Origin: Candidatus Yonathbacteria bacterium
Lineage (GTDB): Bacteria > Patescibacteriota > Minisyncoccia > Phycocordibacterales > JACNGX01
NCBI GenBank assembly: GCA_013334825.1
Contig: JAAXWR010000002.1
Location: forward strand, 155,009 to 219,008
Length of the DNA stretch: 64,000 bases
Direction of reading: 5' to 3'
In this document: positions 58,589 to 58,690 of the stretch, piece by piece
Layout: the number at the start of each line of letters is the position of its first letter
How positions within the stretch are numbered: position 1 is the first letter of the stretch
Notes under the pieces: model-generated
Told to the model about the DNA's origin: nothing
Seen by the model: only the letters and a program-made list of their open reading frames with translations
Database searches by the model: none
Position numbers and translations under genes: made by a program

Positions 58589-58690
58589 AAATTGAAAATT
58601 TGTTTGTTCCTCTAACCCATCACCTCTAACCTCTTTCCTACATTCCTGTCCGTCCTATAACCTACATCCTCTCACCTAATTCCTCATTTC

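Follow-up and report, generated by a model that had tools for sequence, protein, structure and literature searches.

Known Repeat Systems and the Locus Studied

Short, modular, multi-copy repeats of non-coding intergenic DNA that carry no transposase of their own are represented by the pneumococcal BOX and the enterobacterial REP/BIME elements, which often lie beside terminators, show orientation preferences, vary in the number of internal units, and form stable stem-loop folds. The present analysis concerns a family of pyrimidine-rich intergenic blocks in a 64,000-nt stretch of Candidatus Yonathbacteria bacterium (GenBank assembly GCA_013334825.1, contig JAAXWR010000002.1, positions 155,009 to 219,008 of the forward strand), hereafter called the window, and in particular the block between the genes frr and rseP that was flagged in an earlier note. 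Like elements of the BOX/REP class, these blocks occur in multiple collinear copies at non-homologous intergenic sites. Unlike them, the window arrays are unstructured when taken alone, have an internal period of 7 nt, and show no sequence relation to BOX or REP.

Bacterial intergenic DNA is enriched in heptameric simple sequence repeats (SSRs; Mrazek et al. 2007, as cited in PMC4692102), which differ in length between close relatives and are proposed to originate from polymerase slippage with a heptamer preference (PMC4692102). The GGGAATC repeats of Xanthomonas and the GGGGA(T/C)T repeats of Nostoc resemble the window blocks in their 7-nt head-to-tail units and intergenic confinement; their copies occur singly or as inverted pairs, and their length and sequence vary at the same spacer, as in the window blocks. 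The window units differ in being degenerate (68-96% identity) and G-poor rather than G-rich, with no G-quadruplex possible, and the arrays differ in being modular in a set order, polar toward gene ends, and present in a host from the candidate phyla radiation (CPR). Compared at the level of their description, the STRR repeats of heterocystous cyanobacteria (Calothrix PCC 7601; cited in PMC4692102) likewise comprise several tandem heptamers per genome in non-coding DNA; the STRR units are near-perfect and long, unlike those of the window, and both phylum and sequences are unrelated.

The TAACTGA repeats of marine Beggiatoaceae, some Cyanobacteria, and Bacteroidetes lie mostly in forward orientation a few nucleotides from start codons lacking a Shine-Dalgarno (SD) sequence (MacGregor 2015, PMC4679880). 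In contrast to these, the window units (TTCKTGM, TTCATAT, and CCTMTMA) are variable, the SD is almost absent regardless of the presence of a block, 40% of the window copies are located at stop codons, and for many a -10 box follows downstream; nothing points to a horizontal spread of the window blocks. The genes of the window, rather than the blocks, can be compared with leaderless genomes (Actinobacteria and Deinococcus-Thermus) and with SD-poor lineages (Bacteroidetes and anti-SD-less Parcubacteria), with which they share a short fixed distance between the -10 box and ATG, a pyrimidine at -1 and A at +1, and little SD, a likeness seen at the sequence level. Previous descriptions exist of heptameric intergenic repeats and modular dispersed repeats, of heptamers close to the starts of SD-less genes, of leaderless genomes, and of Parcubacteria that have lost the anti-SD; the window block family with its host clade, the constant modular order, and the polarity rule are new.

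Repeat Family and Unit Structure

The blocks constitute a lineage-specific, modular, dispersed intergenic repeat with fast gain and loss and with polarity toward gene ends. The census covered the 64-kb window and about 200 kb of relatives; a metagenome scan yielded 24 loci, and 12 high-GC chance matches were discarded. In the window, 15 blocks with a total length of 1,330 nt were found (Table 1). The nine blocks reported earlier upstream of genes (8210-8326, 29755-29880(-), 39660-39826, 41690-41853, 46818-46870(-), 48288-48345(-), 49100-49140, 58595-58690, and 62575-62750) and the three reported in the opposite orientation downstream of genes (34313-34400, 43283-43330, and 56455-56490) were all recovered at or near these positions, and 26232-26307(+), 30317-30382(+), and 44878-44947(-) were added. 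The pooled composition of the 15 blocks is 18% A, 29% C, 8.6% G, and 45% T, with a C/G ratio of 3.3.

The small vocabulary of the blocks proved to be non-random. The motif CCTMTMACC was matched 17 times in the window versus 1.0 +/- 1.0 expected from dinucleotide-preserving shuffles, and TTCKTGMTTC was matched 22 times versus 0.88 +/- 1.0, which corresponds to a 17- to 25-fold excess; the observed values were reached in none of 100 shuffles. Within the window, the blocks are not equally common in coding sequences (CDS): all 15 lie outside annotated CDS and tRNA genes, although the annotation covers 80% of the window (P about 2e-11), and a single motif match out of 39 (at 61157) falls within a CDS.

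The architecture of the blocks is that of degenerate tandem arrays with a period of 7 nt, arranged head to tail. A self-match of at least 0.52 was obtained at lag 7 in 63 of the 63-nt segments and at any other lag in at most 18, and the segments with lag 7 as the strongest lag were intergenic without exception. Tandem Repeats Finder (TRF) reported at least 13 period-7 arrays with unit matches of 68-96% and units including TTCGTGC, CATATTT, GAATCAA, AAAATGA, CCTCTAA, and CCTATCA. Two heptad classes can be distinguished, a TTC-type (TTCGTGA, TTCTTGC, and TTCATAT) and a CCT-type (CCTATAA, CCTCTAA, and CCTATCA). The modules follow each other in a constant order, ...TTTATCGTTTATAG / TTCATATTTC... 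/ TTCGTATTCTTGATTCGTGMTTC / SAGTRTCCGTCCCTATAACC / YATCACCTCTAACC / TCTTTCCTA. An iterated nhmmer profile of 168 positions, with the consensus ...TTTATCGTGTATAGTTTTTGTCTTCATATTTCATATTTCTTATTTCATCTTTCGTATTCTTGATTCTTGCTTCGTGATTCTAGTGTCCGTCCCTATAACCTATCACCTCTAACCTCTTTCCTACA, placed copies in register at 11 window loci (E down to 4e-32) and gave 25 collinear matches over the window and relatives, with E down to 1e-32. The best-conserved part of the family is a G-containing core, CCGTCC(C)TATAACC, and partial copies are contiguous sub-ranges of the profile. The collinear profile and the contiguous partial copies indicate a dispersed modular repeat family rather than independent low-complexity tracts. 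Nor do the blocks consist of one unit at high identity, as simple sequence would; several unit types occur in a set order.

Searches against known families were negative. With the Rfam 15 covariance models, only 7 tRNAs reached the gathering score in the window, and nothing relevant was found at E <= 1 in 58450-58800. The block sequences had no match in the plasmid collection, and the 22-mer YATCACCTCTMACYTMTTTCCT gave only four single matches in the genome collection, in unrelated taxa, which is consistent with chance. The idea that stop codons in three frames are an orientation-specific property of the blocks was dropped because both strands close a similar number of frames.

Placement and Polarity

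A block was present in 4 of 7 convergent spacers, 2 of 8 divergent spacers, and 8 of 30 co-directional spacers of at least 60 nt. Since more than half of the convergent spacers, which contain no gene start, carry a block, the blocks are not tied to gene starts. Nine of the 15 blocks point at a co-oriented start, their 3' ends being 0-55 nt away, and six point at an opposite-strand stop codon (proS, GH18, mreB1, tsaD, hsp20, and the thioredoxin-reductase-like trxB-like gene), where a purine-rich tract directly follows the stop on the sense strand of that gene. The earlier statement that the blocks precede genes in the orientation of the gene therefore holds for the former nine and not for the latter six.

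The 3' end of the pyrimidine-rich strand lies at a median of 2 nt from the gene boundary, and the 5' end at a median of 76 nt. This polarity is followed by 14 of the 15 window blocks (sign test p = 0.001), and of the lag-7 arrays of five lineages, 31 out of 40 that could be scored have their T-rich strand running toward the nearest gene boundary (p = 0.0007). Because the pyrimidine- or T-rich strand runs 5' to 3' into the nearest gene end, the sense strand is pyrimidine-rich before a start and purine- or A-rich after a stop. In the spacers flanked by co-directional genes, the close relative included, about 7 co-oriented versus 4 antisense arrays were counted, a difference that is not significant. 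No replication-strand bias was observed, the blocks being distributed about evenly on both strands within a single GC-skew regime.

Terminator-like hairpins are located directly 5' of arrays, on the strand of the array, at 29910-29891, 34422-34399, 30262-30294, 43341-43316, and 49072-49094, and several arrays start inside the T-tail of an own-strand intrinsic-terminator-like hairpin. The stop-proximal arrays lie mostly between the stop codon and the terminator-like hairpin. The copies fill the space from the terminator hairpin to the next gene boundary, and their polarity is strict. Three heptad blocks have a GC-rich hairpin immediately on their 5' side, so that hairpin and array may form one composite unit. 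A family of GC-rich hairpin repeats (GCATTGTGCACCACGTAGGATGCACAGC...) was observed at 26153-26230, 39570-39660, and 41578-41650, with arms that are 93-100% complementary between copies.

Occurrence in Relatives and Turnover

The RseP homologues place the window in Patescibacteria/Parcubacteria, with Candidatus Yonathbacteria as the nearest named relative (67% identity). A close relative, represented by loci L006, L030, and L039 and by other Lake Tanganyika contigs, has about 92% nucleotide identity to the window and uses the same block vocabulary. Relatives are present in the Lake Tanganyika metagenomes Ga0194119-27 and in the SRA runs SRR11449211 and SRR11449212. Its frr-rseP spacer (L006) is 203 nt long versus 102 nt in the window. 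Over their distal half, the two spacers align at about 88%, and the 100-nt difference consists of two gaps (72 and 28 nt), the TTC-type modules being missing from the window copy. In the same relative, the block family occurs at non-orthologous loci, pointing toward starts (twice in L018, and in L031 and L032) and toward stops (L018 and L034). Among 99.9%-identical contigs, no heptad copy-number variation was seen.

In more distant members of the clade, the heptads themselves are different. The orthologous frr-rseP spacers of relatives with 63-67% identical RseP contain AAATCCT/AGGATTT (L012), TACAAAT/ATTTGTA (L014), and TACGAAT together with TAATCTCC (L043). In the spacers of distant clade members, the stop is usually followed by an A-rich arm and the start preceded by a T-rich one, and the two arms form long hairpins by pairing (z = -4.3 and -5.1 for the L012 and L014 frr-rseP spacers); palindromic heptad versions exist in relatives. 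As the excess of C over G fails in L012 and L014, it is not a clade-wide property; T-richness alone is. The window modules TTCTTGATTCGTGCTTC and GTCCGTCC were found at other genes in L012, whose RseP is 67% identical.

Signs of copying and of block-sized insertion were also detected. In L014, a TARA-derived relative, two 129-nt palindromic heptad elements (8489-8617 and 9873-10001) occupy the adjacent spacers mreB1-holB and frr-rseP and are 100% identical, which implies that copying or gene conversion took place very recently. Relative to L014, L043 carries a clean 63-nt (9 x 7) insertion composed of a GC-rich segment and TTAATTC heptads; the flanks are about 97% identical, and no flanking duplication was found at this insertion. 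A strong period-7 signal was obtained only in the Yonathbacteria-like clade (window, L012, L014, L042, and L043). The frr-rseP spacer is compact (13-28 nt) in L040 and L041, with RseP about 50% identical, and in L042, with RseP 66% identical; lag-7 arrays are absent in L041, weak in L040, and present elsewhere in L042. The collinear profile, the non-orthologous copies in the 92%-identical relative, the 100%-identical sister copies, and the block-sized insertions and deletions support the degenerate dispersed repeat that the earlier note had offered as one of its two explanations.

A second intergenic tandem repeat with a period of 11/22/43 (ACGCGGAACGT and TACGCAGAATC) was observed in the window at 40336-40441 and 41484-41535. 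Its GCGGAAC version (L010, 840-890) occupies the frr-rseP spacer of a relative with 81% identical RseP.

Gene Starts and Shine-Dalgarno Sequences

An SD-like tetramer (GGAG, GAGG, or AGGA) 4-13 nt upstream of the start was present in only two of 45 genes (565-1449(-) and 60010(+)), which is below the 9.4% observed for internal ATGs. The strong SD sequences that had been ascribed to other genes of the window were therefore not confirmed. The remaining 43 genes have no SD with or without a block, and since an SD-bearing group is absent, the presence of a block cannot be correlated with the absence of an SD. The near-absence of the SD agrees with the reported loss of the anti-SD in about half of Parcubacteria, the anti-SD motif being detectable in only 48% of their 16S genes (PMC9297842).

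The gene starts have other common features. In 10 of 44 genes, a TANNNT box ends exactly 6 nt upstream of the ATG, compared with 0.6 expected from 821 internal ATGs, and a pyrimidine occupies position -1 in 40 of 44. G is depleted over positions -45 to -1, with 15% in the upstream regions versus 24% in CDS. The -10 box is often extended (TGnTAnnnT), and many such boxes end 6-10 nt before the ATG, as in TGcTATACT-6-ATG (valS), TGaTACAAT-6-ATG, TGTTATCAT-6-ATG, and TGaTATACT-6-ATG; such starts occur throughout the window, for example at 29756-29739(-), 32800-32821, 34960-34980(-), and 52918-54855(-). The pattern TGnTATACT-N6-9-ATG is found in the relatives L012 and L014 as well. These features suggest that many genes have leaderless or near-leaderless mRNAs transcribed from extended -10 promoters. 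A literature search found no description of leaderless transcription in Patescibacteria.

In four genes, a -10 box separates the block from the ATG: valS (29753-29748), proS (41839-41844), M16 (8311-8316), and mreB2 (62741-62746). The block at these genes consequently lies outside the mRNA made from that promoter. For the same reason, namely the position of the proS -10 box downstream of the 5' array, a long-range pairing of the proS 5' and 3' arrays was rejected. If the longest open reading frame (ORF) is taken, the starts of M16 and valS extend into the blocks. Neither a constant -35 box nor a constant distance between a module and the -10 box was found by inspection of the M16, valS, NUDIX, proS, and mreB2 upstream regions. 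Because the SD is nearly absent lineage-wide and the block lies upstream of the -10 box at several genes, the blocks are not the cause of SD-less initiation.

A resemblance of the E-F module (ATCACCTC[TAACCTC]TTTCCTA) to the 3' end of 16S rRNA (GGATCACCTCCTTTCTA) was considered and set aside as a probable coincidence of CT-rich low-complexity sequence. The module ATCACCTCTAACCTCTTTCCTA, present at 41749-41770 and 58619-58640, resembles the 16S 3' end with one extra heptad, again probably by coincidence, and its complement contains many SD-like GGAGG and AGGTGAT sequences. None of the loci analysed, in the window or in relatives, contains an rRNA gene.

The frr-rseP Spacer

The flagged block is located between frr, encoding the ribosome recycling factor (58040-58588), and rseP (58691-59803(+)), encoding an M50 site-2 protease with a PDZ domain (Pfam PF02163/PF17820). 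The 102-nt spacer reads TTTGTTTGTTCCTCTAACCCATCACCTCTAACCTCTTTCCTACATTCCTGTCCGTCCTATAACCTACATCCTCTCACCTAATTCCTCATTTC-ATG. The block contains 39% C and 5% G, was matched by nhmmer at 58601-58642 (E 1.8e-6) and 58646-58684 (E 4e-4), and was assigned a period of 7 by TRF; a distance of 6 nt separates its 3' end from the rseP ATG. The rseP gene is without an SD and without a canonical -10 box at leaderless distance; TAATTC is found 8 nt upstream.

A promoter-like site, TTTGCA-17-TGgTATACT, was found at 58001..58029 (+), 10 nt before the frr ATG at 58040, and is the probable start of the frr-rseP transcript. No promoter-like or terminator-like sites were found between frr and rseP, so the block is likely carried in the frr-rseP mRNA, where it would probably be an unstructured intercistronic spacer. 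The predicted minimum free energy of the RNA 58589-58700 (112 nt) is 0 kcal/mol, and 200 of 200 shuffles fold at least as well; the values predicted for the other blocks range from -2.5 to -9.9 kcal/mol per 130-150 nt. No convincing -10 box lies between block and ATG in ftsA and DUF167 either. An unstructured SD-free intercistronic leader is plausible at frr-rseP, and the same may apply to ftsA and DUF167. The C/U-rich leader supporting SD-independent initiation, which was the other explanation offered earlier, is thereby retained as plausible for rseP; as a general explanation, it is not supported, given the near-universal absence of the SD, the -10 boxes located after blocks, and the blocks at stop codons.

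Interpretation of the Blocks

With moderate confidence, the blocks are considered to be a lineage-specific, non-coding, dispersed intergenic repeat of degenerate heptamer units that has a passive architectural role in a Parcubacteria (CPR) genome. A largely architectural, passive role of the arrays is considered most likely. Heptamer slippage would build and resize the arrays, and whole blocks, often together with the GC-rich hairpin module, would be copied, inserted, or deleted between spacers. The arrays may represent the G-poor, structure-free arms of terminator-centred intergenic cassettes (extended A-arm / hairpin / U-arm), and transcription units that are self-contained and mostly leaderless would be kept apart by such cassettes. 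In spacers lacking an intervening promoter, as at frr-rseP and perhaps at ftsA and DUF167, the block would become part of the mRNA and form an intercistronic leader free of structure and of an SD.

Several points weigh against this interpretation. The hallmarks of transposition were not found, there being neither terminal inverted repeats in the window lineage nor target-site duplication, and the window copies have no local inverted arms. The gene starts were set from inspection and from the gene calls of relatives. The strict polarity and the persistence of TTCTTGATTCGTGCTTC/GTCCGTCC in L012 go beyond what neutral filler would predict, and selection or an orientation-reading factor may lie behind them. 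As polarity and module persistence exceed the neutral model, three functional alternatives were kept.

The first of these, which is unlikely, is that the blocks, transcribed as 5' untranslated regions or intercistronic sequences, recruit ribosomes without an SD, either at an unstructured pyrimidine-rich standby site or with the help of a protein that binds single strands, bS1 for instance or one with cold-shock domains, each domain reading about 7 nt. The nine blocks ending 0-55 nt before a co-oriented start accord with such a role, as do the fully unstructured RNA of the rseP block, the frr-rseP spacer devoid of promoter-like and terminator-like sites, and the ftsA and DUF167 blocks, which abut the ATG with no good -10 box between. 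The TAACTGA repeats before SD-less Beggiatoaceae genes have been read likewise, with S1, Csp, and CsrA as candidates (PMC4679880), and bS1 with 3-4 domains is retained in CPR bacteria (PMC9297842). However, 43 of 45 genes are SD-less regardless of the blocks, the -10 box separates block from ATG in valS, proS, M16, and mreB2, six of 15 blocks lie as the complement at stop codons, and blocks occupy 4 of 7 convergent compared with 2 of 8 divergent spacers. Moreover, the orthologous frr-rseP spacer of L012 and L014 forms a long stable hairpin, and the heptad sequence is not conserved between lineages.

It is rather improbable that the arrays act as insulators. RNA polymerase entering a gene from outside, on whichever strand, would first transcribe a C/U-rich, G-poor array and thereby allow Rho loading (rut-like) or NusG-type pausing at the T-rich non-template strand. 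Leaderless promoters would be protected from read-through in this way, and gene 3' ends from antisense transcription. This is the sole explanation that directly predicts the polarity at starts and stops alike, and it predicts an array just after an intrinsic terminator hairpin, as a fail-safe. The composition is rut-like (at least about 70 nt, C-rich, G-poor, and unstructured), with 29% C and 8.6% G in the arrays and the higher C and lower G values of the rseP block given above, and early termination would be useful if the read-through of leaderless genes were untranslatable. Rho termination normally occurs tens of nucleotides downstream of the loading site; the termination point would here fall inside the gene. 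The start-proximal arm in L012 and L014 is G-containing and C-poor (AGGATTT and ATTTGTA), its arms pair into hairpins, and exact TTNTTT motifs were not regular within the heptads on direct reading. A literature search on the presence of rho or on NusG pausing in the lineage found nothing.

Improbable as well is a DNA-level role, in which phased YYC/TTC triplets every 7 bp would be sites for a DNA-binding protein of nucleoid or regulatory type, or the block would be a "mobile promoter" with weak -10-like TAACCT, TATTCT, or TAATCT. No consistent -35 box or -10 spacing was found on direct reading, the -10 box and the start region lie outside the repeated unit, and blocks are at least as frequent in convergent, promoter-free spacers; no candidate binding protein was identified. 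These observations stand against the location of the blocks at about -20 to -200 relative to the -10 box of M16, valS, proS, and mreB2, the TATTCT that the ftsZ block supplies 6 nt before the ATG, the TAATCT that the heptad arrays of L043 and L012 contain 8 nt upstream of the rseP ATG, and the G-containing core as the best-conserved part of the family. Finally, chance low-complexity sequence arising from AT/CT-rich intergenic composition without shared ancestry was refuted by the motif excess over shuffles, the collinear profile, and the specific period of 7, even though the upstream regions of all genes are G-depleted and some pyrimidine richness is generic.

A wider proposal is also unlikely. 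The Yonathbacteria-like clade may bracket its genes with polar heptad arrays, the T-rich strand always entering the gene boundary from outside at starts and stops alike, that are read by orientation-sensing machinery punctuating leaderless units (RNA-polymerase/NusG, Rho, or a 7-nt-per-domain protein); the heptad words would then be lineage-specific and turn over fast, while period and polarity persist.

Block Inventory and Other Features of the Window

The coordinates of the blocks and associated promoter elements are listed in Table 1. The identities of the block-associated genes M16, ValS, NUDIX, ProS, FtsZ, FtsA, DUF167, and MreB are supported by Pfam.

Table 1. Heptad blocks and associated promoter-like elements; positions refer to the window unless a relative is named.
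Feature	Position	Strand	Context
M16 block	8102..8292	+	Longest copy of the composite element; TTC-type heptads, then CCGTCCCTATAACC, CATCTCCTCTAAC, TCCTTTCCTA; divergent spacer
M16 extended -10 TGtTATACT	8308-8316	+	Between block and ATG at 8327
hsp20 block	26232..26307	+	Convergent spacer yafQ-like/hsp20; 3' end 2 nt from hsp20 stop codon; hairpin modules 26088-26126 and 26153-26230 lie 5' of block
valS block	29763..29884	-	Opens as (TTTTTCA)x4 in T-tail of terminator hairpin 29910-29891
valS extended -10 TGcTATACT	29756-29748	-	Just past block end; 6 nt before ATG at 29741
tsaD block	30317..30382	+	Period-8 CTAACCTN; antisense, between tsaD and valS; overlaps tsaD stop codon; preceded by hairpin 30262-30294
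GH18 block	34307..34407	-	Convergent spacer; after terminator hairpin 34422-34399; 3' end on GH18 stop (34312)
NUDIX block	39663..39813	+	Upstream of ATG 39827; hairpin module 39570-39660 before block
proS 5' block	41690..41838	+	Upstream of proS; hairpin modules 41578-41700 before block
proS extended -10 TGTTATGAT	41836-41844	+	9 nt before ATG at 41854
proS 3' block	43281..43324	-	3' end abuts proS stop codon; proS sense strand reads GAAGCAAGAATCAA...
Thioredoxin-reductase-like (trxB-like) block	44878..44947	-	Overlaps stop codon; convergent spacer; + strand GAGAAAT heptads
ftsZ block	46828..46861	-	Last heptads give TATTCT (46826-46821), 6 nt before ATG at 46814
ftsA block	48288..48345	-	T/C-rich; fills 63-nt spacer before ftsA; weakest family member
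DUF167 block	49116..49151	+	Abuts ATG (49153); downstream of promoter-like TGGTATGATAGAGGTATAAT and hairpin 49072-49094
mreB1 block	56455..56490	-	Antisense, directly after mreB1 stop, between two + strand genes; position conserved in the 92%-identical relative
Flagged block	58601..58684	+	frr-rseP spacer; two D-E-F-type modules (CCTCTAACC, CATCACCTCTAACC, TCTTTCCTA; GTCCGTCCTATAACC...)
mreB2 block	62593..62704	+	Two modules; TATACT (62741-62746) between block and ATG at 62760
mreB2 core promoter region	window 62720-62762; L012 11600-11638; L014 12010-12062; L042 3990-4026		

The mreB2 core promoter region, in which a hairpin is followed by TTTTSCCGTATACTGGG and by a further 6-25 nt up to the ATG, is shared by the whole clade, and the repeats upstream of it come and go. 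A YafQ/ParE-type toxin gene (25759-26040, Pfam E = 5e-26) is located just before a block-containing convergent spacer, and the small ORF upstream of it (25493-25747) could encode its antitoxin. The ORF 60010-62526 (838 aa, function not assigned) contains seven in-frame 84-nt (28-aa) tandem copies at 60190-60780 with 82% identity.

An 85-nt duplicate with 100% identity that includes the 3' part of tRNA-Val was found at 43409-43493 and 43677-43761. Many other duplicated tRNA 3'-end fragments and hairpins occur at 21164-21460, 24388-24600, 38430-38800, and 1523-1686/3520-3683, among them a 164-nt repeat with 95% identity. These duplicated fragments may be scars that integrated elements left at their attachment sites, or else repeats derived from tRNAs. 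Region 1-4000 of the window has a GC content of 0.49 versus about 0.44, contains repeated tRNA-like fragments, and has a clear SD-like AAAGGAGA upstream of 565-1449(-); it may be foreign or mobile DNA.

Significance

The window provides sequence-level evidence for a largely leaderless lineage of Parcubacteria, from a group in which absence of the anti-SD has been reported. In this clade, SD-based gene finders will place starts wrongly, and recognition of the -10-N6-ATG pattern and of the blocks would improve the calls. For strain typing, the arrays offer hypervariable markers; in metagenome-assembled genomes, they probably also cause breaks in the assembly. Fast-evolving polar heptad repeats make up the enlarged spacers of the lineage (102-414 nt versus 13-28 nt in L040, L041, and L042). 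If the polarity is functional, it points to how bacteria with minimal genomes separate their transcription units, and if genes are indeed punctuated by arrays that an orientation-reading machinery recognizes, this would be an intergenic system not described in CPR bacteria.

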